From positions 544,001-608,000 of the forward strand of contig JAXGZN010000002.1 in the NCBI GenBank assembly GCA_040776945.1: a DNA stretch of 64,000 bases. Direction: 5' to 3'. Under the pieces are notes generated by a model. The model did not search any database. It was given only the letters and a program-made list of their open reading frames with translations, and was not told the origin of the DNA. The stretch's first letter is position 1. The number at the start of each line of letters is the position of its first letter. Position numbers and translations under genes: made by a program. This DNA is from Methanomassiliicoccaceae archaeon (lineage in GTDB: Archaea; Thermoplasmatota; Thermoplasmata; Methanomassiliicoccales; Methanomassiliicoccaceae). Shown piece after piece: positions 34,453 to 47,540 of the stretch.

Positions 34453-35415
34453 ATGGAGGACAGCTCAAGATTGACCAGCTGGCAGAAGGCCAAGGAGGTC
34501 CTAAGGATCGCTTACACCCTGCCGTTCGTGCTAGCATCCATCGTTGGCGTGGTGTTCGCCCTGACGACCAGGACGGAGCCTCTGATATCGATCCTCATAC
34601 CGATCACCGTCCTGTTCCTTGCCCTGTTCGTTAACTTTTCCAATGATTATTTCGACCACAAGAGCGGGGTGGACAAGCTCCGGTTCAGCTATTATGATGA
34701 TGACCCCGGGCTCAAAGAGGAGATCACAAAGCTGTTCAATCAGAAGGTGTTCTGGTCTGGAAATTCCCTAGATCGAGGCATAATCACCGAGGCTCAAGGG
34801 AAGGTGCTAATGGCCCTACTGGCGATAGGGGCGGTCCTCTTGTCCATACCCATCGTGCTTTACGCCGGATGGCTCGCGGTCGTGCTTGGCCTCATCGGCC
34901 TGGCCCTGGCGTTCTTCTATACCGCTCCCCCCGTCAACCTGGGGGCCAGAGGGCTCGGTGAGGTTGACGTGATGCTGTCGTTCACCATGATTGCCTTCTT
35001 CTCCTATTTCGTGATCGTACAGGAATTCAGCTGGCCCATGCTCTTCCTTTCCATGGCCATCGGCTTCGGGGCGATGCTGATGCGCCTCTCCGACGAAGCG
35101 CCGGGCCATCCATCCCACGTGGCCAAGGGCGAGAAGAACCTTCTGGTACGGTTCGGGATAGAGAATATCATGAGGATAGAGATCGCGATGGTCATCGCCA
35201 TCTACGCCTGCGTCCTGTGCGCCGTGGTGTTCGAGCCGTTCCTGATGGTCCTGTTCCTTGCTCTCCCGATCCCGGTCCGGACACTTAAGGTGATGAAGGG
35301 CGACACCTCTCGCATCCGTCTATGGAGGCCTATCCCCCAGTTCCTCAAGCAGACGATATCCATCGAACTGCTGGCGATCATCGCGTTGATAGCGCGAATC
35401 GCCTTGACATCCTAG
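34453..35415 (+). CDS. UbiA-superfamily prenyltransferase (MenA-like)
   Basis: NDYFDHKSGVD first Asp-rich motif, YTAPP..LGARGLGE and multiple TM segments; ATG after GGTGA. Confidence 0.85.
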   Translation: MEDSSRLTSWQKAKEVLRIAYTLPFVLASIVGVVFALTTRTEPLISILIPITVLFLALFVNFSNDYFDHKSGVDKLRFSYYDDDPGLKEEITKLFNQKVFWSGNSLDRGIITEAQGKVLMALLAIGAVLLSIPIVLYAGWLAVVLGLIGLALAFFYTAPPVNLGARGLGEVDVMLSFTMIAFFSYFVIVQEFSWPMLFLSMAIGFGAMLMRLSDEAPGHPSHVAKGEKNLLVRFGIENIMRIEIAMVIAIYACVLCAVVFEPFLMVLFLALPIPVRTLKVMKGDTSRIRLWRPIPQFLKQTISIELLAIIALIARIALTS

Positions 35416-36310
35416 TGATGGTCTGGACGTTCCCCGCGAGTATGAGACGGTACTCCCGCACCGCGTCGAACCCGCAATGCTTGCAGGACTCGGTCCCTTG
35501 CATGGGACATCCGTAGTGCTTGGAGCCATCGGGCAGGGTGAACGATGATACCCAGTAAGGGCACTTTTTCGAGTAGTCCTCTATGAGAAGCTCTTTCAAC
35601 GCCCGCTCCGTGTTCAGAATGGGCAGCTTCTCCTTTCTTAGCTGCAGCGCCTCATTGACGACCTGGGCCTTCTCCTCCAAGGTGAGGGAGATATCATAAG
35701 GCGGCGGCGTGAGGAAGTTGAGCATCAGCCCCCGAATGCGAGGGTTCGCCTTCACCACCTCCGCGGTCTCTCTCACCTTGTCGAGGTTAGGTCTCATGAC
35801 CACCATGTTTGCGAAAATGTTCGGATGGTCCGTCATTTCCAGGTTGGCCATGAGCTTGTCGTACACACCAGGCCCTCGGATGCGGTCATGCACCTCCCGG
35901 GGGCCGTCAAGGCTGATGGACAGCACATCGCTCTCTTCGAATATCCTCCCGGTCCCGTTGGTGGTATATCCTATCACATAGTAGCCGATTCGGCGCCCCT
36001 CGGCGATGAGGTCCCCGAGCCCCTTGTCCCCATCCCTCCATATCGTGGGCTCTCCACCTTCGAAGAAAAGTATCTTCGCCCCCTTTTCGTACTCCGCCCT
36101 CATCTCCCTCGAGGCAGCGTCGAAGCTCATGGTGCTCCCCTCCTTCGGAATATCCTCCGTGCTCGAGGAGATGGCGCAGTGCTGGCACCTCAGGTTGCAC
36201 GCATAATGGATGATCATGGTGTTGACCAGGGGATGCTTCATCCCGAGCTTGGACCTGAGGAACCAGGACGCATAATAGGTATACTGGCGAAAGGAGCTTG
36301 CTGGAGGCAT
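35378..36310 (-). CDS. Radical SAM protein with C-terminal Cys-rich (DUF3463/HpnH-like) domain
   Basis: CNLRCQHC, EGGEP, TTNG, SISLDG..HDRIRG and C-terminal C..CP..CKHCG. Confidence 0.88.
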   Translation of the reverse strand: MPPASSFRQYTYYASWFLRSKLGMKHPLVNTMIIHYACNLRCQHCAISSSTEDIPKEGSTMSFDAASREMRAEYEKGAKILFFEGGEPTIWRDGDKGLGDLIAEGRRIGYYVIGYTTNGTGRIFEESDVLSISLDGPREVHDRIRGPGVYDKLMANLEMTDHPNIFANMVVMRPNLDKVRETAEVVKANPRIRGLMLNFLTPPPYDISLTLEEKAQVVNEALQLRKEKLPILNTERALKELLIEDYSKKCPYWVSSFTLPDGSKHYGCPMQGTESCKHCGFDAVREYRLILAGNVQTITRMSRRFALSTR

Positions 36311-36640
36311 GCTCGAATGAACGGCCGGGGCGTATTTATGCTTAGCGCGCTCCAATGCGGTTGCCTGGCATGGTCCAGCTTTTAAAGCAAGGGCCGGGAC
36401 GGGAGATATGATCCCATGAGGTCGACCTTCGAGCCCAATGGAGCGCTCCGGGGGGCAAGGGGCTACTCTAGCCATCCTTCCTGGTCGGTCGCCCGATCAT
36501 TAATGAGGCTATGGCCGGCAAGGGAAGGGCCCTGCTCGAGATGGCTTGACAGCGTTCGCCATTCGCTCGATGCGCACAGCGGAAGAACGATCAATGTGAT
36601 GGTCCCTGGAAGCGGAGCTCAAAGTTAGAGGGCATGGAGG

Positions 36641-37786
36641 TCATACCCAGTCAGTGTCTCCCAGCACCAAGTGGCATTGCAGGCCACCTTTCAAAGAGGA
36701 CATGATCTCCTCGGAATCGTCCAATGGCCGGAAAAGGAGCTTCATGGTCCTCTCTTCCGACCCGGTCTGGCGGTGGAGGAACCCGGCCCGGCCGAGGTCC
36801 GGCAGGTAGGGATGATCGCTCGGAAGCCACATCTGCATGATGGTGGACCCTATCTCCCGGCAGACCCTGGCCGCGGACGAGACAAGGGCGCCGATCGCGC
36901 CTTCGTCGCCGACCTCGGCCACCAGGTCCACGATGTCCATGTAGGTCCGCCCCTCGACCGAGTACGGCCTCAGGACGATGAGGCCGGCCGTAGATGGTCC
37001 GCGGCGTGCGAACAAGATGCGGAACTTGCCTCCCCGAGGATCGGAATATCTCCATCGCAAATATTCAACGTCCCTTCGCAGAACGAAAGTGAACGCCTTC
37101 TCGAACCGGAGGACCATCCTCTCGATGTCATCAGGGAAGACCACGCTCTCATAGACCTCCACATCGGGGTCCCTCCTCGCTCGGTCCCCCTTGAGCGTCC
37201 TGAGGCCTCTGTAGGCCATCTTCTTAAGGCCCCCATACCTGACATCGCGGAAGAACCTGTCAGGGTCGGCGATGAGCTCGTAATGTCCCATATTAACCGG
37301 CAGGTCGACGAAACCGGCCTTGCGCAAGACCTTCTCTCCCGCCGCGGATGGGAAGGCGAACTCGACCTCTATCCCCCTGGATTTATTGAGCTGGCGGAGC
37401 ATGAGGACAGCACGGTCCATCAGTCCTTTGTTTCGCATGTCCTCTCGGGTGAGAAGGTCCGAGCATTGCGCCCCCCGGTGGACAGCGCCGCCGATGATAA
37501 GGTCAGTAGGAAGGCTCGCCGCATGCGCGCAGACCCGGCCGCCGCAATCTGCGATCACCTCATTGGTGAAGCCCCGCGGGTTGCGGCCATATCTCCATTG
37601 CCAGAAATCCATTTTGCTCCCCTCATGGGGGAAACCGGGCCATGGCATGGCCCCGGTCATGAGCTCGATGATCCCGGTCACATCTCCCCGGTCCGCGGAC
37701 CTGATCGCCGTATCGGTCAAAGGAACCCCTGCCAGCGCGGACAGGTACGGTCGAAGTTCGTAATAATATGGTCGCTCGACCGCCAT
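36641..37786 (-). CDS. Tandem-GNAT-fold acyltransferase
   Basis: WQWRYGRNP, MRNKGL (acyl-CoA motif A), FAFPS, YLRWRYSDP and GDTDWV C-terminus. Confidence 0.75.
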   Translation of the reverse strand: MAVERPYYYELRPYLSALAGVPLTDTAIRSADRGDVTGIIELMTGAMPWPGFPHEGSKMDFWQWRYGRNPRGFTNEVIADCGGRVCAHAASLPTDLIIGGAVHRGAQCSDLLTREDMRNKGLMDRAVLMLRQLNKSRGIEVEFAFPSAAGEKVLRKAGFVDLPVNMGHYELIADPDRFFRDVRYGGLKKMAYRGLRTLKGDRARRDPDVEVYESVVFPDDIERMVLRFEKAFTFVLRRDVEYLRWRYSDPRGGKFRILFARRGPSTAGLIVLRPYSVEGRTYMDIVDLVAEVGDEGAIGALVSSAARVCREIGSTIMQMWLPSDHPYLPDLGRAGFLHRQTGSEERTMKLLFRPLDDSEEIMSSLKGGLQCHLVLGDTDWV

Positions 37787-37863
37787 GAACGATAGATTGA
37801 TGACCACTCCGATACTATTATACCTTCATCCAGTGTTTTTACAAAAAAACGGGGGTTCACACG

Positions 37864-38394
37864 ATGCCGGACATACGTCAGAGAGTGAGCGAGGACCAAG
37901 GGGTCCTGAAAAAGATCCAGATGTTCATCCCTGGCTTCCGGGGATACCGTCAGAAGGAGGACCTCAGGGACGCCGACCGCATGCTGCGGGACCAACTGGT
38001 AAAAAAGCTATCTCTGCAGCGCAAGCAGGTCGAAGGGGCCAGGAGGCTGGTGAAGAACGCCTACAATTCCAAGGAATTGGAGATGATGGGCGGGATAATC
38101 AGCGCTTACAAGAAGGTGGAAGGCCTGGCATCGCATTCCTCGATGGGGTACTCTGGGATATCCGCCGACATCCAGTTCAAGCAGGACGAGATATTCCGTC
38201 TGTACGATTATGACGCCTCTATGATAGACGGCCTTGCGTTCATGCAGCAGGCCATAGATCAGTTGAAGGCCGCCCTCACTGCAGAGGACGGCCCGAAGGC
38301 GGAGGCGGAGGCCGGACAGCTCCGCGCGCTCATCGACAACTTCGAGGAGCAGTTCAAGCGACGCATGAACGTCATCCAAGGAACGGAGGTCTAG
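37864..38394 (+). CDS. Conserved all-helical hypothetical protein, first gene of the SPFH operon
   Basis: IPGFRGY...DLRDAD..LR, GYSG and LYDYD motifs; amphipathic helices; tightly coupled to the next gene. Confidence 0.8.
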   Translation: MPDIRQRVSEDQGVLKKIQMFIPGFRGYRQKEDLRDADRMLRDQLVKKLSLQRKQVEGARRLVKNAYNSKELEMMGGIISAYKKVEGLASHSSMGYSGISADIQFKQDEIFRLYDYDASMIDGLAFMQQAIDQLKAALTAEDGPKAEAEAGQLRALIDNFEEQFKRRMNVIQGTEV

Positions 38395-38396
38395 AC

Positions 38397-39575
38397 ATGG
38401 TTAAGGTAACGCCGGATAAGGGCGGGGCGCTGAAGGACAGCCTAATCGGTTCGGCCACCTTCAGCTGGGGCGACAGTTCCAACGATATCGAGAAGCGCAA
38501 CAACATCATGTACCGCGTCCCGCGGCTCATCAGGTTCAACGATAACATCGTCGTCCGGGAGGACGAGATAGCGGTGTTCTACCGCGACGGCAAGGCCCTC
38601 GCCTACCTCGACAGGCCCGACCGGTATGCTCTCACCAGCATCAATGCCCCCATCGTGGGCACGATCGTAAAGGCCCTCTCCGGCGTTGTCCAGCAGGCCG
38701 AGGTCGTGTATCTCCAGAAACGCGCCTTCGACGGCAAGTTCGGCTCCAAGCAGCCCTACCAGTTCAGGGACAATGATTTCGGAGTCGTCAATCTCCGGGT
38801 CTTCGGAGAGTTCCGTTACAGGGTCGGTCAGCCCGAGAACTTCGTCAACCAGTTCGTCGGCACGCTCAACTATGCGACCTCCTCGCAGGTGGAGGAACGC
38901 ATCAAAGAGCAGATGGTCATCCTCATCTACAATGTTGTGGGCGAGCTAAAGAACCAGGGCATGGGCGTAGCGGACCTTGCATCCAGCCTCATGAACATCG
39001 AGCAGGGCGTGCTGGAGAAGGCCAAGGACCACTTCGATCTGTACGGCGTCCTGATCGACAAGGTCTCCGGACTGTACATCTCCCTGCCTGAAGAGGTGCA
39101 GAAGGCTGTGGACACCCGTGCCTCGATGCAGGTGCTGGGCACCAACTATATGGGTTATCAGACCGGGCAGGCCATGCGCGAAGCGGCCCAGAACCCTTCG
39201 GGAGGCGCCGCGGGCATCGGCGTTGGGCTGGGAGCGGGAGTTGGAATGGGCTACACCATGATCGATCAGATGAGGCAGCAGCCCGTGAGCGGACCGGCCC
39301 AGCAGCAGGGCGGAGGGACGGCACCCTTCGGCAACACTGTGAAGTGTCCCAAGTGCGGCGCCATGAACCCTCCCAGCAACAAGTTCTGCGCGGAGTGCGG
39401 TACCAAGTTCGAGGCGGACAAGAAGTGTCCCAAGTGCGGCTCCAACGTGCCGGGGGGCTCGAAGTTCTGCCCCGAGTGCGGCAACCCGATGGGGAACAAG
39501 AAGTGTTCCAGCTGCGGAGCGGAGGTGAGCGGAGCTACGAAGTTCTGCCCCGAGTGCGGTAAGCCGATCCAGTGA
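38397..39575 (+). CDS. SPFH (Band_7_1/YdjI-like) protein with three C-terminal Zn ribbons
   Basis: IVVREDEIAVFYRDG, KFGS.QPYQFRD, LRVFGEF, ISLPEEVQKAVD, Gly-rich GIGVGLGAGVGMG and three CxxC..FCxECG repeats. Confidence 0.9.
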   Translation: MVKVTPDKGGALKDSLIGSATFSWGDSSNDIEKRNNIMYRVPRLIRFNDNIVVREDEIAVFYRDGKALAYLDRPDRYALTSINAPIVGTIVKALSGVVQQAEVVYLQKRAFDGKFGSKQPYQFRDNDFGVVNLRVFGEFRYRVGQPENFVNQFVGTLNYATSSQVEERIKEQMVILIYNVVGELKNQGMGVADLASSLMNIEQGVLEKAKDHFDLYGVLIDKVSGLYISLPEEVQKAVDTRASMQVLGTNYMGYQTGQAMREAAQNPSGGAAGIGVGLGAGVGMGYTMIDQMRQQPVSGPAQQQGGGTAPFGNTVKCPKCGAMNPPSNKFCAECGTKFEADKKCPKCGSNVPGGSKFCPECGNPMGNKKCSSCGAEVSGATKFCPECGKPIQ

Positions 39576-39584
39576 GGTCCCCGG

Positions 39585-40328
39585 ATGGCTCAGGTAAACT
39601 GTCCCAAGTGCGCGGCACCCATGGAGCTGGACGCCGGCGTGAAGTTCGCCAAGTGCAGCTACTGCAGCTCCATGGTCTTCTTCGACCGGACCGGGGCGGG
39701 GTTCTACTACGCCATCCCCTTCACGCTCGGGCAGAACGAGGCCGTCGGCACGTTCCGGCGCTGGGCTGGAGGCTCCACCAAGGCCAAGGATCTTGATCGT
39801 CTCGCCAATATCACCGAGATCAAGAAAAAATACTTCCCGGTCTACCTCTTCCGAAGAGAGGTCAACGGAAGGGAGGAGGTCATCGTGGAGCCGGCCGGCT
39901 CGACCATATTGCCAGGCCTCCATCAGCTCAAGGTCCCTGGAGGCGACCTGAAGGTATTTGATGATAAGTTCGATACTGGCGGAGCGGAGATGGTCAGGCC
40001 GGACATCGAGATGCTGCACTATTTGGACAAGCTGCCTGGCAAGGGAAAGGAGCAGGCCCTGGTCTACTTCCCGATCTGGACCATTGAATATACCTTCAAC
40101 GGGAGCAAGTACCAAGTGGTGGTGGACGCCTCCTCTTCCGAGGTCTTCGCCTCCACGTTCCCAGCGCGAGGTTCGGCGGCCTATCTCCTGGTGGCCTTGG
40201 TGGGCTTCATCATCTTCCTGGTGCTCGGCTTTGTGGCCACGGTCATGCTGGTGCCGGCCTTGGTCCTGATGGCCCTGACGGTGGTAGGGGTGTTCTTCCT
40301 TTCCCTCACCGTTGCGAGGAGGATGTAA
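39585..40328 (+). CDS. YdjG-like Zn-ribbon membrane protein
   Basis: CPKC..CSYC, IPFTL...A...F.RW, YFPVY, YFPIW..EY.FNG..YQVVVDA and two C-terminal TMs. Confidence 0.75.
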   Translation: MAQVNCPKCAAPMELDAGVKFAKCSYCSSMVFFDRTGAGFYYAIPFTLGQNEAVGTFRRWAGGSTKAKDLDRLANITEIKKKYFPVYLFRREVNGREEVIVEPAGSTILPGLHQLKVPGGDLKVFDDKFDTGGAEMVRPDIEMLHYLDKLPGKGKEQALVYFPIWTIEYTFNGSKYQVVVDASSSEVFASTFPARGSAAYLLVALVGFIIFLVLGFVATVMLVPALVLMALTVVGVFFLSLTVARRM

Positions 40329-40329
40329 G

Positions 40330-41331
40330 ATGGGAGATATCACCGTCGGATTGAACTGTCCAGCTTGTGGAGGGGCCATATCCATCACCGAGGGGGAGAG
40401 CGTTGTCAATTGCCAATATTGCGGCTCGACGCTCTATGCGGAAGGGGACAAGGGCGTTTTCACGATAGCCTTCAAGAACAAGCTCAACGAGCAGACTGCC
40501 GTGACCGCCGCGCAAGGATGGTGGAAGAAAGGCTTCAAGGCCCGTGACCTGCGCAAGATCGGCGCGATCACCGAGGTATATCCGATATATATCCCGTTCT
40601 GGAACATAGGGAGCCGGGTGGCCGGATGGGTGTGCGGGTACGAGGAGAGGACCCGATCGGACAGCAAGGGCAACACCCACACCGAGAGGGTCTACAAGGA
40701 GGAAATGGTCCTCATGGACCTGGTGTTCTCGGAGATCGCCTGCGATCCCGGGGACCTTGGACTGCGGTCCATGCGCAACTTCTCCGGAGAGTCGTCCTTC
40801 GAGGACCTCGGTATGATCCCGACCTTCGAATCGACCACCAGCCGCGACGACGCTCATGTCCACGCACGGCAGGACGCTCTGTCCAGGGGCCGGAGCTCGG
40901 CGCGCGTCCCGCACATCACCTTCGAGAACCTCCACGCGGTGGTGAAGAGCACCTCGATGATTTACTATCCGATATGGGTAGTTCGCTACACGTATCAGGA
41001 GCGGATGTACCTGCTAACGGTGGACGGCGTTACCGGCGGAGTGCTCTCCGGAAGAGCGCCGGGAGACCCTCTGTTCCAAAGCCTGGCGGTCACCGCTGGG
41101 ACGTCCATAGGGGGCCTGGCAGCGGCCGGGGGCATACTGTTCGCGATAGGGAACAGCTCCGAAATGGGCATCGCCGGAGTGATATTCGGCCTGATCGTCC
41201 TAGGGCTGACCTATTCCTTCTTCCGACACGGCTCGGAGATAATCGAGGGTGATTTCATCGACCGCAGGAAGGGAATGGACCTCGCCCAGATCGGCCAGGT
41301 CGGCAAGATGCTGGGAGGTGCATACCGGTGA
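40330..41331 (+). CDS. YdjG-like Zn-ribbon membrane protein
   Basis: CPACGG..CQYCG, YIPFW, YYPIWVVRYTY..RMY.LTVDGVTG.VLSG.AP and two C-terminal TMs. Confidence 0.78.
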   Translation: MGDITVGLNCPACGGAISITEGESVVNCQYCGSTLYAEGDKGVFTIAFKNKLNEQTAVTAAQGWWKKGFKARDLRKIGAITEVYPIYIPFWNIGSRVAGWVCGYEERTRSDSKGNTHTERVYKEEMVLMDLVFSEIACDPGDLGLRSMRNFSGESSFEDLGMIPTFESTTSRDDAHVHARQDALSRGRSSARVPHITFENLHAVVKSTSMIYYPIWVVRYTYQERMYLLTVDGVTGGVLSGRAPGDPLFQSLAVTAGTSIGGLAAAGGILFAIGNSSEMGIAGVIFGLIVLGLTYSFFRHGSEIIEGDFIDRRKGMDLAQIGQVGKMLGGAYR

Positions 41332-41918
41332 AGATCGTCCAGGTCAAGTGCCCGGGCTGCGGGCAGGCCATCTATCAAAAGACGAAGGACCAGATGTTCC
41401 TCTGCCAGAACTGCGGTAAGATCCACTACCGCGACGACCAGGGGCCGCACAATGTCCCCTTCGAGATCGCCGATCCGAACCCCAGAGCTGCCGGGCAGCG
41501 GTTCTATATGCCGTTCTGGCGGCTTCGCTGCAACTTCATGATACGCTCAAGGAACGTTCAAGGCGGCATGCTGCACAAGCTAGCAACTTCATTGAAAGGA
41601 GGGGACAACGGCGGGGTGCTTTACATCTTCGTTCCCGCGGCTAGCATCGACACCGCGACCTTCAGGAGATTGGCGGTCACCCTGACCACCTCTCCCCCTA
41701 TGTACGCCGTCCGCCAGGACTTCAACGGAATAGAGCGTGTCCCGACCACGGTTATGCAAGACGAGGCCATCGAGATGGCCGATTTCGTCGCCGTGACCCT
41801 CGAAGCGGAAAAGCCAGGCACCCTGCAGTATCTCGACTATGACCTAAAGGTGCTGGAGGCGAAGCTGCTCTACCTTCCCATGGTGTCCACACCCAACGGT
41901 CCTTGGCTCGCGCTTTAG
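41328..41918 (+). CDS. Soluble YdjG-like Zn-ribbon protein
   Basis: CPGCG..CQNCG, FYMPFW and LLYLP; no TM; GTGA overlap. Confidence 0.7.
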   Translation: MKIVQVKCPGCGQAIYQKTKDQMFLCQNCGKIHYRDDQGPHNVPFEIADPNPRAAGQRFYMPFWRLRCNFMIRSRNVQGGMLHKLATSLKGGDNGGVLYIFVPAASIDTATFRRLAVTLTTSPPMYAVRQDFNGIERVPTTVMQDEAIEMADFVAVTLEAEKPGTLQYLDYDLKVLEAKLLYLPMVSTPNGPWLAL

Positions 41919-42029
41919 CCTCCCGACTGGACAAAGTTCATACTATCCGGTCAAGACCAGGGCGTATTTGCCCGGCAGGGACGCTGAAGAATGCATAGCT
42001 TTTAGTTGCAGCTCGGTATTTTAATCACC

Positions 42030-42500
42030 ATGACCGGAGCGGACCTAGGGCTGATGTTCATCATCATTGGAGTGATCATGTTGCTGGCCGAGGCCGTGAC
42101 CCCCGGCGTGTTCCTGGTGGTGCCGGCAACGGTCCTGATAGTTCTCGGAGCCATCGGATTGATCGCGCCAGGTCTGTTGCTGAGCATGTGGTCGCCGATA
42201 ATTGCCTTAGTGATAGGGGTACCGGTCTTCATGGTCACGGTTAGGGCATATCAGAAGCTCTCGCCCCCCATGCCTCCAACCACCACAGTGGCGACGTCGC
42301 TGATCGGAATGGAGGGTGTAGTGGTCACCGAGGTCTGCCCCAACAACATCAGGGGCAAGGTGAAGATCCAGAACGATATCTGGAGCGCAACGTCCACCCG
42401 CCCCATAGAGGTCGGCTACAGGGTCAGGGTGGTCCACAGCGAGGGGGTTCATGTCAAGGTCGAGCCCATCGGAGCCGTTCCCGAGGCCGAGTGCAAGTGA
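42030..42500 (+). CDS. NfeD-like (YbbJ-type) membrane protein
   Basis: Three TMs with AEAVTPG, then OB-fold LIGMEGVV..GKVKI..DIWSA..G.RVRVV..EG. Confidence 0.9.
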   Translation: MTGADLGLMFIIIGVIMLLAEAVTPGVFLVVPATVLIVLGAIGLIAPGLLLSMWSPIIALVIGVPVFMVTVRAYQKLSPPMPPTTTVATSLIGMEGVVVTEVCPNNIRGKVKIQNDIWSATSTRPIEVGYRVRVVHSEGVHVKVEPIGAVPEAECK

Positions 42501-42512
42501 AGAGGAGATGTT

Positions 42513-43619
42513 ATGGTCGATGTCGTAACGATCGGACTGTTGGTGCTGGCCATCGTGGCCGCGGTATTGATCCTCGTGACCGGTATACGGATCGTTAAGC
42601 CGTACGAGCAGGCGATATACATACTGCTGGGCACGTACAAGCGTACTTTGAACCCGGGCTTCAACTATGTGTTCCCGCTGATCAGCGAGGTGGTGAAGAT
42701 CGACCTCCGTACCCAAGTGCTCGAGGTCCCCCGTCAGGAGGTCATCACCAAGGACAACTCGCCCACCAATGTGGACGCCATCATCTACATCAAGGTCATC
42801 GATCCCAAGAACGCGTATTTCCAGGTCACCAACTATCGGGCGGCGACGGTTTACCTGGCACAGACCACCCTCCGTGCCATCATCGGCGACATGGAGCTTG
42901 ACGAGATACTGTCCTCCAGGGAGAAGATCAACCTGAGGCTCAGGGACATTCTGGACGAGGCAACCGACAAGTGGGGCGTCCGTGCCGAGGCCGTCGAGAT
43001 CCGGGAGGTCGACCCCGCTCCCAAGGTCAAGCAGGCCATGGAGGAGCAGACATCCTCCGAGCGTCTCAGGCGGGCGGCGATCCTTCGCGCCGACGGCGAA
43101 AAGCGCGCCGCCATTCTCAGCGCGGAAGGTTCCAAGAGGTCCCGCATCCTGCAGGCCGAGGGCGTACGGCAGTCCAAGATCCTGGAGGCTGAAGGCGAAA
43201 GGCTTGCCATCATCCTGCAGAGCCAGGGCGAGGCCCAGAAGCTGCGCATCCTTTCAGTAGGGGCCAGTCCGCTGGACTCCAAAGCGCTGGCGGTCCTGTC
43301 GATGCAGACCATGCAGAGCCTGGGGGCCTCCCAGTCCACCAAGTGGATCCTTCCGTTCGAGGTGTCAAAGGTTCTCGAGGGCATGTCCGAGTTCTTGGGC
43401 GTCTCCAGGCAGACCCCTGCAAGAGAGGTGTCCGATCAGGCGGCAGTGGAGAAGGCTGTAGGGAAGCCCGATGACGTTCTCGGCCCCATTCCCTCCCAGG
43501 CCGAACTCCGCTCGGAGCTGAAGGCATTGGAGGACGCCATGGCCAAGGAGAAGGAGGAGGCCGAGGCCCTCGGAGCCCTGGGGCAAGGGAAACCGGACAA
43601 GGACATGCTGAGCCAGTGA
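42513..43619 (+). CDS. Stomatin/QmcA-like SPFH protein
   Basis: N-terminal TM, DLRTQVLEVPRQEVITKDN, AQTTLRAIIGDMELDE, KWGV and an AEG-repeat coiled coil. Confidence 0.94.
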   Translation: MVDVVTIGLLVLAIVAAVLILVTGIRIVKPYEQAIYILLGTYKRTLNPGFNYVFPLISEVVKIDLRTQVLEVPRQEVITKDNSPTNVDAIIYIKVIDPKNAYFQVTNYRAATVYLAQTTLRAIIGDMELDEILSSREKINLRLRDILDEATDKWGVRAEAVEIREVDPAPKVKQAMEEQTSSERLRRAAILRADGEKRAAILSAEGSKRSRILQAEGVRQSKILEAEGERLAIILQSQGEAQKLRILSVGASPLDSKALAVLSMQTMQSLGASQSTKWILPFEVSKVLEGMSEFLGVSRQTPAREVSDQAAVEKAVGKPDDVLGPIPSQAELRSELKALEDAMAKEKEEAEALGALGQGKPDKDMLSQ

Positions 43620-43639: not shown

Positions 43640-43672
43640 GAGGCCTCTTGGCCTCACCTTTCCTCATTTTTT
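43640..43672 (+). terminator. Hairpin plus T-tract terminator after the stomatin gene
   Basis: GAGGCC-TCTT-GGCCTC followed by CTTTCCTCATTTTTT. Confidence 0.55.
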
Positions 43673-43840
43673 ATCCATCGGCCACGGCGGCCAGACCTGA
43701 CCCAGGGCCATTGACCTTGCCGTTCTCAAGATGCACCTCCCGGTCGTCCGGCCCATCACTGTTCGCGGTTCCTGCTTTCTATCCATCATGCTTGATAAGG
43801 GGGTCGTGATTATCCGGCCATAGATCAGGGGAGACCTTAG

Positions 43841-44560
43841 GTGCCGATCATACGCTGTGAGAACGTCACAAAGACATATGTAACTGGCGATGTCCGGGTG
43901 GAAGCGCTCAGAGGCATAACCATGGATATCGAGAGAGGGGAGATGGTCGCCGTTATGGGGCCGTCCGGATGCGGTAAGACTACGCTGCTGAACTGTTTGT
44001 CCGGCATAGATGACGCGACCTCGGGGCGGATAATCATAGAGGGCAACGAAATCACGACCATGGACGACGATTCCAAGACCGACTTCCGTGCCAAGCGGAT
44101 GGGATTCGTCTTTCAGTTCTACAATCTGCTGCCAGTGCTCACGGCCACGGAGAACGTCGAGCTTCCATTGCTCATCGCCGGGGTCGATCCCCAGAGTTCA
44201 AGGAGGAGGGCGACGGAACTTCTGGACGCGGTAGGGCTCTCGAATAGGGCCACTTTGCGCCCCAACTCCCTGTCCGGCGGAGAAAGGCAGAGGGTGACCA
44301 TCGCCAGAGCTCTGAGCAACGATCCGGCCATCGTTTGGGCGGACGAGCCTACCGGAGACCTGGACGTCAAGACCTCGGAGGAGGTCGTCTCCCTCATGCG
44401 CCGCCTCAATCGAGAGAACGGGCAAACCTTCGTCATCGTGACCCACGACCCGGAGGTAGGGGGCAGGTGCGACCGCATCATTCACATGCGGGACGGCTCA
44501 ATAGTCTCGATGGACGGGAACATCGACCACATCTCCGATGAGATCAGGCAGATGGGGTGA
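43841..44560 (+). CDS. ABC ATPase, LolD/MacB-like
   Basis: [35 protein letters not shown] and VTHD. Confidence 0.94.
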
Positions 44561-44564
44561 CGAC

Positions 44565-47540
44565 ATGGGTCTTAAGGGCGTCCTGCTCACGGTCACGACG
44601 ATAGCGCTGATGGCCGTGGCGCTGATCACGCTCCCCCTCACTTTGGCCGTCCTCGGCGTCATCGCACTGATGGTGATCTACATCCTGGCGGACGCCCTGG
44701 GCTATCGAGTCCTGTTCAAGATGGCCTTGCGCAATTTCACGAGGCGGCCGGCCACCACCGCCATGGTGCTGGCCGGCCTTATGGTCGGGACAGCGATAAT
44801 ATCTGCCTCCCTGGTTGTGGGAGATACCTTTGACAACATGGTAGTGGGGGAGACCTCCAAGACCTTCGGCAGCATCGATTTCGTGGTCACCGGCGCCGGC
44901 GACGGCTCGGGCAGAGGCCTGTACTCAGCTTCCAACGTATCATCCGTGAGGACGGATGTGCTCGGCCTCGAGGAGGCGGCGAGGGCGGAATGGGTCCTGG
45001 AGACAACGATCAGCATCAGGTCCCTGGCATCGGGCCTCACCCAGCCCAGAGTGGGCATGCTGGGCATAACCGCGTCCACCGCCGAAGGGTTCGGCGGGTT
45101 CATGGACGCAGGAGGCAAGCACATAACCTCCATCCCGGCCGAAGGGCATGCATATATCACCAAAAGGACGGCCGACCGTTTGGACATCAAGGACGGCAGC
45201 GAGATAATGCTGGCAAAGGACCAGGCCCATGTCATCACCAAGGTCGCCGATGTGGTTCTCGACGAGGGCCTTGCCACCTTGGGGCCGGGCATTTTCGTCG
45301 ACATTGAGACCGCTCAATGGCTGAGCGGCAATGAGGGAGCCGTCAGCCATCTGATCATATCTATGGGGCCGGAGGGGCGGGACCGGGTGAACACCTCACG
45401 GGAAGAAGTGAGCTCGATCCTGTCCATGTACCCTGGCCTGGACCTAAAGACGACCGGCGACCGGGCCATAGCGATCGAGGAGGGCCGTTCCCGCATCTCT
45501 ACGCTCTCATCGATGTTCTTCGTTTTCGGATCGTTCTCCATAATAGCCGGCATCGCTCTCATAATCAACATCTTCACCATGCTAGGGGAGGAACGGAAGG
45601 GCGAGATGGGAGTGGCCCGGGCAGTAGGGATGAAAAGAGCGCACCTCCGCAGGCTGTTCACCTATGAAGGGCTGGCCTACGCCATGCTGGCCGCGGCCAT
45701 AGGGACCGTGGCCGGCCTCGCTCTCGCCTACGCCTTGATCATTGCCGTCGGTTCGATGATATCTGCCGGCGGAGTGAACATCGGAAGGTACTTCGCGTTC
45801 ACGCCGCTCTCGCTGGCCGCCGCGTACTTGGCAGGATTCTCCCTTACCTTGATCACGATCTACTTGGTCACCTTCAGGATATCCAAGATGAACATCGTCC
45901 GCGCGGTCAGGAACATCCCTGAACCGCTCAGGGCCAGGGACGACAAGGGGTCGTTCCGAATCGGACTTCTTATGCTGGCATCCGGCACAGCGGTAATGGT
46001 CCTGGGCATGACGCAGGAAAGCCTGGCCCTGGCGTCCGGCGGCCTGTCCCTAGCAACGCTCTCCGCCGGCCTGCTTCTCCGGCGCTTCAGCAGCGACCGC
46101 GTGGCCTGGAGCTTCGCCGGTCTGGCGACCCTGTTCGTGTGGGTACCCAAGGGCTTCGCGATATTTCCCTATTCTGGCAACATCGAGATGTTCGTGATCT
46201 CTGGCGTTTTCATGGTTTCTTCTCTGCTAATAGTGGTCATCTTCAATTCCGACAGCATCGTTCGCGCCTTCACCGCGGTAATGAGGGCCAAGGGGAGCTA
46301 TCGAGCGGTCATCAAGACCGCCATATCCTATCCTCTCAGGGCCAGGATGCGCACTGCTCTGAGCATATTCATCTTTGGACTGGTCATCTTCACCGTCACC
46401 ACGCTCTCGATGATCTCTGGCATGCTGTCGGTCGGCATCCCGCATATGGTGGAGGAGACCTCCGGAGGGTTCGACATTGTGGCCTTCTCTGCCGCTCCGG
46501 TGGACATGTGGGGGACGATCAACGGCGCCCCCGGGCTGGTAGATGCGAGGAACGTGACCAGCATCATACAGCTCAGCCAAGGCTCGGCACTTGTCACCAT
46601 GAACCGCACCGATCCCCGGACCGGCCTTACGGAACAGGTGAGCTTCAGGTACATGGCGGTCGGCATCGACGACATGGGGCGTTTCTACACCGAAGGAACA
46701 TATCCGCTCAAGGAGTGGGACTCCTCGAGGTTCAGCAGCGAGCGGGAAGTATGGGACGCGGCCAGGAACAACGCGTCGGTCGTCGTTCTCGACGGCTCGG
46801 CAGGGGAGCCCGCCGGAGGTTTCGGTCTGTCCATGGGGAGCAGCGGTTTCACCGGCATCAAGATCGGAGACGACGTTCAGATGACCGATGTCCATGGCTC
46901 GAACATCACAATGACCGTCATCGGGATCACCGAGCAGAGCGCGTTCTCGGGCATGTTCATGAGCGCCGAAAATGTGCGTTCTAGGCTGGGGATCGCCGGC
47001 ACGAACCTTTTCTTGGTCAAACTGGCCGATGGCGCCGACCCCGACAAGCAGGCCACTCTGATCCAGAACCAGTTCTGGGAGACGGGGATGAGCACAATAT
47101 CCCTTAGAACGATGGCCCAGAGCGCGGTCAGCCAGATCGACGGCATGTTCAACCTGATAAAGGCCTTCCTGGCCCTCGGGCTCATCATCGGGATCACCGG
47201 CCTGGGCATCATCACCATAAGGTCCATACGCGAGAGGACGATCGAGATAGGGATGATGCGGGCCATAGGGTACACGAAGCGCATGGTGGTGGTCAACTTT
47301 GCCCTGGAATCAGCGTTCATCTCCGTGCTTGGAATACTGATCGGTTCGGTCCTTGGCGTCGTGGTGGGCTACCAGCTGTGGGAGTCCGTGTTCCAGGACA
47401 TGGGCATAGGATTCCTCGTGCCCTGGTGGCCGGTCCTCACGGTCGGCGGCATGGCATTCGTCGCCACCTTGCTCTGCGTGTATCCCGCGGCAAGGGGGGC
47501 GAGCAAGGTCTCGCCGGCATCGGTCCTGAGGTTCGAGTGA
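44565..47540 (+). CDS. Duplicated FtsX/MacB-type ABC permease
   Basis: Two repeats with ERKGEMGVARAVG and ERTIEIGMMRAIG; ends PARGASKVSPASVLRFE. Confidence 0.92.
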   Translation: MGLKGVLLTVTTIALMAVALITLPLTLAVLGVIALMVIYILADALGYRVLFKMALRNFTRRPATTAMVLAGLMVGTAIISASLVVGDTFDNMVVGETSKTFGSIDFVVTGAGDGSGRGLYSASNVSSVRTDVLGLEEAARAEWVLETTISIRSLASGLTQPRVGMLGITASTAEGFGGFMDAGGKHITSIPAEGHAYITKRTADRLDIKDGSEIMLAKDQAHVITKVADVVLDEGLATLGPGIFVDIETAQWLSGNEGAVSHLIISMGPEGRDRVNTSREEVSSILSMYPGLDLKTTGDRAIAIEEGRSRISTLSSMFFVFGSFSIIAGIALIINIFTMLGEERKGEMGVARAVGMKRAHLRRLFTYEGLAYAMLAAAIGTVAGLALAYALIIAVGSMISAGGVNIGRYFAFTPLSLAAAYLAGFSLTLITIYLVTFRISKMNIVRAVRNIPEPLRARDDKGSFRIGLLMLASGTAVMVLGMTQESLALASGGLSLATLSAGLLLRRFSSDRVAWSFAGLATLFVWVPKGFAIFPYSGNIEMFVISGVFMVSSLLIVVIFNSDSIVRAFTAVMRAKGSYRAVIKTAISYPLRARMRTALSIFIFGLVIFTVTTLSMISGMLSVGIPHMVEETSGGFDIVAFSAAPVDMWGTINGAPGLVDARNVTSIIQLSQGSALVTMNRTDPRTGLTEQVSFRYMAVGIDDMGRFYTEGTYPLKEWDSSRFSSEREVWDAARNNASVVVLDGSAGEPAGGFGLSMGSSGFTGIKIGDDVQMTDVHGSNITMTVIGITEQSAFSGMFMSAENVRSRLGIAGTNLFLVKLADGADPDKQATLIQNQFWETGMSTISLRTMAQSAVSQIDGMFNLIKAFLALGLIIGITGLGIITIRSIRERTIEIGMMRAIGYTKRMVVVNFALESAFISVLGILIGSVLGVVVGYQLWESVFQDMGIGFLVPWWPVLTVGGMAFVATLLCVYPAARGASKVSPASVLRFE

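Follow-up and report, generated by a model that had tools for sequence, protein, structure and literature searches.

We analysed a window of 64,000 nucleotides (nt) of DNA from a Methanomassiliicoccaceae archaeon (assembly GCA_040776945.1, contig JAXGZN010000002.1, positions 544,001 to 608,000 of the forward strand; coordinates below are those of the window), in which seven plus-strand open reading frames (ORFs) fill positions 37864-43619. The first five genes, g1-g5, are best explained as a PspA-less relative of the PspA-SamGHI module, in which g2 would be an SPFH scaffold, g3 and g4 its tethers, g5 a modulator and g1 a recruited partner; we give this reading a probability of roughly 0.6. The seven genes in the ORF list are:

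g1, 37864-38394, +: 176 amino acids (aa); soluble helical protein of an unnamed family
g2, 38397-39575, +: 392 aa; soluble SPFH protein, YdjI/SamI-type by predicted architecture
g3, 39585-40328, +: 247 aa; zinc (Zn) ribbon, alpha/beta domain and membrane hairpin, apparently YdjG/SamG-like
g4, 40330-41331, +: 333 aa from ATG; larger g3 paralogue that has an insertion, hydrophobic segments towards the C-terminus and a short tail
g5, 41328-41918, +: 196 aa; third paralogue, soluble; has a Zn ribbon and a single YMPFW motif and lacks a membrane segment
g6, 42006-42500, +: 164 aa; NfeD membrane protein, accessory neighbour
g7, 42513-43619, +: 368 aa; membrane-anchored stomatin/HflK-like SPFH protein, partner of g6, accessory

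The ORF coordinates agree with the tight coupling of five genes noted in a preliminary description of this DNA, which had been made from the sequence alone: within g1-g5 the gaps are 2, 9 and 1 nt, followed by a 4-nt overlap, and the distances are 87 nt from g5 to g6 and 12 nt from g6 to g7. An alternative upstream TTG start at 40312 would give g4 339 aa; the ATG immediately 3' of g3 is the start seen again in orthologues.

Conservation of gene order and co-occurrence in Thermoplasmata

A genome scan returned 80 Thermoplasmata/Methanomassiliicoccales loci, and the g2 orthologue follows directly after g1 in all 80. The order g1-g2-g3-g4-g5 is colinear in 61 of the 62 loci informative for it (those with at least 3700 nt downstream), the exception (L024) passing from g2 straight to an NfeD-stomatin pair, and because the order is identical in 61 of 62 related loci the five-gene arrangement lies far beyond chance. 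Co-occurrence shows the same coupling. Of 151 genomes sampled from the class, 110 have g1, 111 have the Pfam domain of g2 (Band_7_1, PF13421) and 108 have both; this tally includes an unpublished genome (G089), positive for both, and without it the first two counts are 109 and 110 of 150. Only g1 is found in G116, where the contig ends, and in G121, and only Band_7_1 in G027, G080 and G035. In 13 of the 14 genomes that were compared by eye, the g1 and Band_7_1 matches are adjacent on one contig. The operon is single-copy, and its presence is all-or-none by taxonomic family.

PspA, whose place g1 takes according to the preliminary description, was not detected. In none of the 151 genomes sampled from the class does PspA_IM30 exceed its cut-off; the genome that holds the window (99.84% complete) has no PspA_IM30 match, and the seven proteins of the locus have none at E<=0.1. 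Snf7 (PF03357) is not matched in this genome either, and this is no proof that ESCRT-III is absent, as the model matches only Sulfolobus among the controls, and there below its cut-off.

The SPFH protein g2 and its Zn-ribbon neighbours

The Band_7_1 model matches residues 44-246 of g2 with 111.6 bits against a cut-off of 24 (E = 5.4e-32), and the Pfam models DZR/Zn_Ribbon_1 match three times over residues 314-391, which confirms the SPFH protein with three Zn ribbons of the preliminary description. Of 72 g2 sequences for which CxxC motifs were counted, 68 contain six. A Gly/Ala/Gln-rich, low-complexity linker lies at about 255-312, and a hydropathy scan of g2 found no hydrophobic window or membrane anchor. 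In the available excerpts of the literature, to which our citations here and below are limited, SamI (YdjI) has an SPFH domain, a region of low complexity plus a zinc finger, and no membrane anchor (PMC13713150; PMC8581546). With Band_7_1, no anchor, a low-complexity linker and C-terminal zinc fingers, g2 is thus by its predicted architecture a YdjI/SamI-type soluble SPFH protein. The Band_7_1 model also matches B. subtilis among the control genomes, which has both Band_7_1 and PspA.

The three genes that follow are paralogues: BLASTP aligns g3 with g4 at E = 1e-14, g5 with g4 at 9e-7 and g5 with g3 at 1e-3. Each of the three proteins has one N-terminal CxxC...CxxC ribbon, invariant among family members, and the motif [YF]xP[FIV][WY] is found twice in g3, twice in g4 and once in g5, where a second site, YLPMV, falls outside the pattern. 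In the AlphaFold2 (AF2) model of g3 (pLDDT 77), the ribbon is followed by two repeats of a helix with a long beta-hairpin and then by a two-helix membrane hairpin at the C-terminus (helices 198-217 and 222-246). g4 has a single strong hydrophobic window at 276-299, preceded by a weaker Gly/Ala-rich stretch, and a hydrophobic-window scan found no membrane segment in g5. Three Zn-ribbon paralogues sharing the motif, one of them soluble, are therefore as had been described; of the two proteins given two transmembrane (TM) segments each, this holds for g3, and g4 has one strong window.

No Pfam family is matched above its cut-off by g3, g4 or g5. Below threshold, Zn_Ribbon_TF is matched by 21 of 35 g3-family members and by 6 in another set of 26, with a best E of about 0.001; PepSY is matched by 3 of the 35 and 9 of the 26 (best E 0.0014). 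The ESM Atlas model of g4 resembles a Bacillota cluster labelled 'TFIIB-type zinc ribbon-containing protein' (343 aa; TM-score 0.70 over 216 residues), which we take as a lead. Foldseek gave no match of the g3 model to the PDB at E<=0.001; in a wider structure search the matches were dominated by the membrane hairpin, which left the globular domain effectively unprobed, and a g3 profile run against PDB sequences gave only ribbon-sized matches, to RNA polymerase subunit P and S27e. According to Ravi et al. (PMC11237479), YdjG combines Zn ribbons with a YpeB-related domain and a TM segment, and Popp et al. (PMC9239133) assigned it TF_Zn_Ribbon. Because they combine an N-terminal Zn ribbon with a weak PepSY-like signal, g3-g5 look like YdjG/SamG in predicted architecture. 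It can also be seen that across the class the three ribbons of g2 coincide with three one-ribbon paralogues. A one-to-one pairing of g2 ribbons with those of g3-g5 is only a thought, because in distant lineages two ribbons go with a single such partner.

g1 belongs to a large helical family

The AF2 model of g1 (pLDDT 83, pTM 0.80) has five helices (4-21, 31-62, 70-91, 107-139 and 143-172), in agreement with the all-helical protein of 176 aa described before, and they are modelled as a compact four-helix bundle (helices of 22-33 residues) with an extra N-terminal helix and apparently no long hairpin. No Pfam family and no characterised family is matched by g1, and PADLOC gives no match. The one family hit is to the NCBIfam model LIMLP_15305 (NF047596), which g1 matches with 43.8 bits against an equivalog cut-off of 210. 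Because this alignment, with E = 2.4e-11, runs end to end, pairing residues 9-170 of g1 with positions 12-172 of a model 175 long, both can be placed in one superfamily, and by profile comparison g1 is a homologue, not an equivalog, of LIMLP_15305. The model has no match in any of the 14 control genomes. The sole paper found for LIMLP_15305 names the gene as the flank of a small RNA (PMC7567364).

An exhaustive search at E<=0.001 gathered 706 clusters at 50% identity, which makes the g1 family a large one; its closest named relatives are proteins of Methanomassiliicoccus and of Thermoplasmata metagenome-assembled genomes, all labelled 'hypothetical'. Across 59 diverse members P23, Y28, D38, R42, D117 and R167 are invariant and G24, G27, E32, R35, G95 and Y96 nearly so. 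In the AF2 model these residues lie in the linker between helices 1 and 2, at the start of helix 2, in the 92-106 loop, at the start of helix 4 and at the end of helix 5, and from this topology they should gather at one pole of the bundle, like a pocket or a docking face. The C-terminal helices vary freely among family members. Profile comparison found no relation of the g1 family to the LemA protein of the same genome (E 0.28), and one search aimed at longer fused forms of g1 found none, which is weak evidence.

The preliminary description had also suggested that g1 may be a PspA analogue. Neither the sequence nor the modelled fold of g1 points to PspA, Vipp1 or Snf7, and the analogy remains a guess from position. 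A profile search with PspA_IM30 and Snf7 found no match in g1 at E<=0.1, two g1 family profiles run against PDB sequences brought up no PspA, Vipp1 or ESCRT-III chain at E<=10, and Foldseek of the g1 model against the PDB gave no match at E<=0.001. Because neither family profile finds such chains, g1 is not, as far as profiles and the model tell, a detectable member of the PspA/ESCRT-III superfamily.

In some Thermoplasmata genomes there is a further g1 paralogue, divergent at 27-32% identity, which lies either a few kb away from the operon or at another place (L043:13280-13828 and L051:5828-6376; also G063, G100, G018 and G045). The one in L043 stands alone beside a DUF2240 gene and a Na+/H+ exchanger gene and is uninformative.

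The g1-SPFH pair beyond the class

A pattern scan for the motif of a distant g1 subfamily returned 80 metagenome loci, 77 of them with a g1-family ORF, and in 50 of the 77 a Band_7_1-like ORF lies directly downstream on the same strand. Among the remaining loci, 2 have such an ORF that overlaps the g1-like ORF or is cut by the contig end, 14 leave no room for the gene and 11 have room and no SPFH gene. Pfam Band_7_1 is found in 44 of the 56 downstream ORFs scanned, and the C-termini of these 44 carry HTH_17 (19), Zn ribbons (18) or SHOCT (1, L125) or are cut by a contig end (6). The gene order is thus conserved outside close relatives, both as the colinear cluster within the class and as the distant pairs. 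The named members of the distant subfamily belong to Anaerolineae/Chloroflexota, with which the Atlas agrees, and the g1-Band_7_1 pair is common in contigs of this subfamily; this core pair is not specifically archaeal, and the archaeal system of the preliminary description needs correction in this respect. The g1 family is widespread, in Thermoplasmata, Chloroflexota and other bacteria.

Homologues of g3/g4 are also found nearby in 8 of the distant loci (9 ORFs, E 2e-7 to 2e-23); they are mostly upstream, soluble and about 250 aa long. Domain fusions of g1 include three proteins with DUF4178, three with Zn ribbons and one chimera with Band_7_1. DUF4178 has been reported in PspA and polyamine operons (PMC11237479); it was not found in the genome of the window, and profile comparison shows no relation between the g3 family and the g1-DUF4178 fusion proteins (E 0.71). 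PspA_IM30 was found in none of the 117 neighbour ORFs scanned at the thresholds used, and the other neighbours are varied housekeeping genes. Because adjacency, co-occurrence and fusions or chimeras are found in two domains of life, a physical partnership between g1 and the Band_7_1 protein is likely on these genomic grounds.

Three further features of the distant loci may be recorded. The HTH_17-ending SPFH genes are those of L097, L102, L106-L109, L112, L116, L118, L122, L123, L127, L128, L130, L131, L139-L141 and L146; such a fusion of SPFH and helix-turn-helix is unusual. Another type of upstream partner (L097:278-1063, L104:4402-5070(-) and L087:300-971) has an N-terminal TM segment, a stretch that by eye is winged-helix-like and a C-terminal Zn ribbon, through which it weakly matches the g3/g4 profiles. 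The SPFH-less loci form a clade (L091, L095, L105, L120, L132, L143, L150, L152, L154, L155 and L157), in which the next gene has FAD_binding_5, CO_deh_flav_C and 2Fe-2S domains of xanthine/CO-dehydrogenase type.

Expression, flanking regions and the NfeD-stomatin pair

Four metatranscriptome runs from four studies were compared as contigs. In X1 one contig, 4161 nt long, matches 37852-42012 without differences; it begins 12 nt 5' of the g1 ATG, runs into the start of g6 and thus spans g1-g5. X2 contigs bridge g2/g3, g4/g5, g5/g6 and g6/g7. RNA-library contigs therefore bridge all gene junctions, in keeping with the joint transcription on which the preliminary description depended, and they are consistent with a g1-g5 transcription unit with possible read-through into g6-g7. 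The RNA contigs leave 37758-37851 (X1) and 37745-37868 (X2) uncovered, and contigs of three runs start at 37852, 37858 and 37869, a weak hint that the transcript starts near 37850.

Two putative non-coding elements were read from the sequence:

divergent intergenic region 5' of g1, 37808-37863, +: TATA-like, A/T-rich TATTATAC at about 37816-37823
terminator-like hairpin 3' of g7, 43640-43673, +: GAGGCC-tctt-GGCCTC, then a T-rich run

There is also a G-rich stretch 8 nt 5' of the g1 ATG. The genes on the 5' side are a GNAT acetyltransferase-like gene divergent from g1 (36641-37807, minus strand) and a radical-SAM gene (35378-36475, minus strand); the 3' flank (43841-47540, plus strand) holds an ABC ATPase gene and a permease-like ORF of 1000 aa.

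Pfam matches above the cut-offs bear out the NfeD and stomatin-like SPFH pair that had been described after the five genes: g6 matches NfeD with 50.8 bits (cut-off 29.1, E = 1.9e-13), and g7, which has an N-terminal hydrophobic window at 1-31, matches Band_7 with 142.2 bits (cut-off 23.6, E = 2.3e-41). Of the 55 loci that extend far enough past g5 to show such a pair, 12 have one there. Because only these 12 do, the pair is accessory and outside the conserved unit, and the 'two SPFH scaffolds' once taken as a feature of the system are true of this genus only. g6-g7 would then be a separate, ordinary SPFH module that happens to adjoin g1-g5 here.

A proposed scaffold with a recruited partner, and the alternatives

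SPFH proteins as a class self-assemble. From domain content, paralogy, conserved order, co-occurrence and the RNA-library contigs over the junctions, we infer the physical contacts of the following scheme, its tethering to the membrane and any role in membrane maintenance or stress. g2 would be a cytosolic SPFH scaffold of the YdjI/SamI type. g3 and g4, in each of which a Zn ribbon on the cytoplasmic side is predicted to be joined to a PepSY-like domain and a membrane hairpin, would tether g2 to the membrane, and the soluble paralogue g5 would adapt or modulate the tether. g1, a soluble four-helix bundle with an extra N-terminal helix, would be an obligate and roughly stoichiometric partner of the SPFH protein, brought to the membrane by g2 as PspA is by SamI, with no homology to PspA.

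Several observations weigh against this scheme. G121, a complete-looking genome, has g1 without Band_7_1, and the 11 distant loci with room but no SPFH neighbour all lie beside xanthine-dehydrogenase-type genes; because of these loci and G121, the partnership cannot be called universal. In g1 there is no TM segment, and no window of 18 residues within residues 1-26 reaches a hydrophobic moment of 0.45; with neither a TM segment nor a strongly amphipathic N-terminal helix, an intrinsic membrane activity of g1 is unsupported. The likeness of g3-g5 to YdjG consists of sub-threshold hits and the Atlas lead, YdjG itself being known here by description only. RNA-library contigs can hold DNA, and a contig across genes is no proof of one transcript. 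Finally, g1-g5 differ from the B. subtilis operon in having no TPM-domain YdjH, the type of protein proposed as the anchor in Bacillus (PMC8581546). TPM_phosphatase has no match in g1-g7, and the only TPM gene of this genome lies on another contig, directly after a LemA-family gene (L204: 1258-2007(-), 2014-2562(-)); this LemA-TPM pair may act in trans as the YdjH-like component that the cluster lacks, or may be unrelated.

The same genomic association could arise if g1 were a regulator or assembly factor of the SPFH oligomer, such as a cap, a chaperone that keeps g2 soluble or a sensor of a small ligand or lipid headgroup that gates assembly. The invariant residues of g1 are polar or aromatic and, as far as topology tells, lie at one pole, and the C-terminal helices vary freely, both of which would suit such a role. 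Work in B. subtilis found that SamH is deregulated when SamI is lost, a phenotype for which PspA is not needed (PMC13713150). We regard a regulatory g1 as a serious candidate that is nonetheless unlikely.

A bolder proposal is that the g1 family is an unrecognised class of effectors, delivered to the membrane by YdjI-type SPFH proteins and doing PspA's protecting or remodelling job where no PspA is found. If this were true, g1 would be a non-homologous replacement of an ESCRT-III-superfamily protein in an otherwise conserved machine of SPFH and Zn-ribbon proteins; we consider it doubtful.

Membrane-to-gene-expression signalling is less probable still. Here the C-terminal module of the SPFH protein (Zn ribbons or HTH_17) would bind nucleic acid, and g1 or the anchors would control its release. 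The 19 of 44 distant Band_7_1 neighbours that end in HTH_17, together with the 18 in Zn ribbons and 1 in SHOCT, fit this idea, as do the upstream partners in three loci that combine a TM segment and a Zn ribbon with a stretch read by eye as winged-helix-like, and loss of SamGHI causes a global transcriptional change in B. subtilis (PMC13713150). However, the Thermoplasmata operon has no transcription-factor neighbour, and Zn ribbons and HTH_17 are also common as protein-protein modules.

That g1 is a true PspA/ESCRT-III homologue diverged beyond recognition is very improbable. Its position upstream of a YdjI-type gene, its predicted all-helical fold with an extra N-terminal helix and the 0 of 151 genomes of the class with PspA_IM30 over its cut-off would all be expected of such a protein, but the searches at E<=0.1 and E<=10 described above returned none of the relevant families or chains, and the model is a compact bundle with helices of 22-33 residues and apparently no long hairpin.

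A mobile defence or toxin-antitoxin-like island is hardly credible: SPFH and Zn-ribbon proteins are found in some conflict systems and L107 has a nucleotidyltransferase gene and a TIR-domain gene downstream, but PADLOC gives only ribbon matches at E 0.0004-0.007, none of them significant, the flanks are varied housekeeping genes, the base composition of the locus has no anomaly, and the operon is single-copy and all-or-none by taxonomic family, as vertically inherited housekeeping genes are. The genes in L107 (8409-10154, 3' of a distant g1-SPFH pair), the second of which is of CAP12/Pycsar type, are probably an unrelated defence island.

Significance

To our knowledge, the YdjI/SamI type is the least understood class of bacterial SPFH proteins, and the Bacillus PspA operon is its only studied context. 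In the literature searched, as far as its excerpts go, YdjI is described only together with PspA, and for soluble SPFH subfamilies neither members nor partners are documented (PMC2636767). ESCRT loci of Methanobacteriales are reported to hold an SPFH protein with a coiled coil and a ribbon (PMC10936438). The literature searched makes no mention of the g1 helical family; its scope excludes the supplementary data of Ravi et al. 2024 and Popp et al. 2022, which may list it. What is new is thus that, across many archaea and bacteria, a YdjI-type scaffold appears to be coupled to a family of helical bundles that is uncharacterised and has no Pfam model. The g1 family gives a concrete partner for probing the role of soluble SPFH scaffolds, a case for testing the SPFH and Zn-ribbon platform as a general delivery device with exchangeable cargo, and a named target for annotating thousands of 'hypothetical' genes.

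Comparison with known systems

The closest known system is the pspA-ydjGHI (pspA-samGHI) operon of B. subtilis. Both have a soluble SPFH protein of the Band_7_1 family in which C-terminal zinc finger(s) follow a low-complexity linker, Zn-ribbon membrane protein(s), in g1-g5 apparently of YdjG type, an upstream gene for a helical protein and tight packing. In contrast to the Bacillus operon, g1-g5 have no PspA, and the family of the upstream protein, a four-helix bundle, is not related to it; where Bacillus has one YdjG, g1-g5 have three YdjG-like paralogues, with g5 soluble; g2 has three ribbons, and its gene is second, not last. The Bacillus-like Psp module of the preliminary description thus stands in the SamI architecture of g2, the YdjG/SamG-like appearance of g3-g5 and the place of g1 upstream of the SPFH gene, and fails in that PspA and the YdjH-type TPM protein are not in the cluster.

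The four-helix bundles of the Chlamydia IncA soluble domain, Rx-CC and SPECT share 6-10% sequence identity with g1, from which no shared function can be inferred, and the LIMLP_15305 family, a Leptospira hypothetical protein, belongs to the same superfamily as g1, with a score far under its own cut-off. The NfeD-stomatin (SPFH1) pairs, of which g6-g7 is a genuine adjoining example, resemble g1-g2 in that an SPFH protein has a dedicated small partner encoded directly upstream. They differ in that g2 has no membrane anchor, that g1 has neither a TM segment nor the OB-fold of NfeD, and that the pairing of g1 is specific to Band_7_1.

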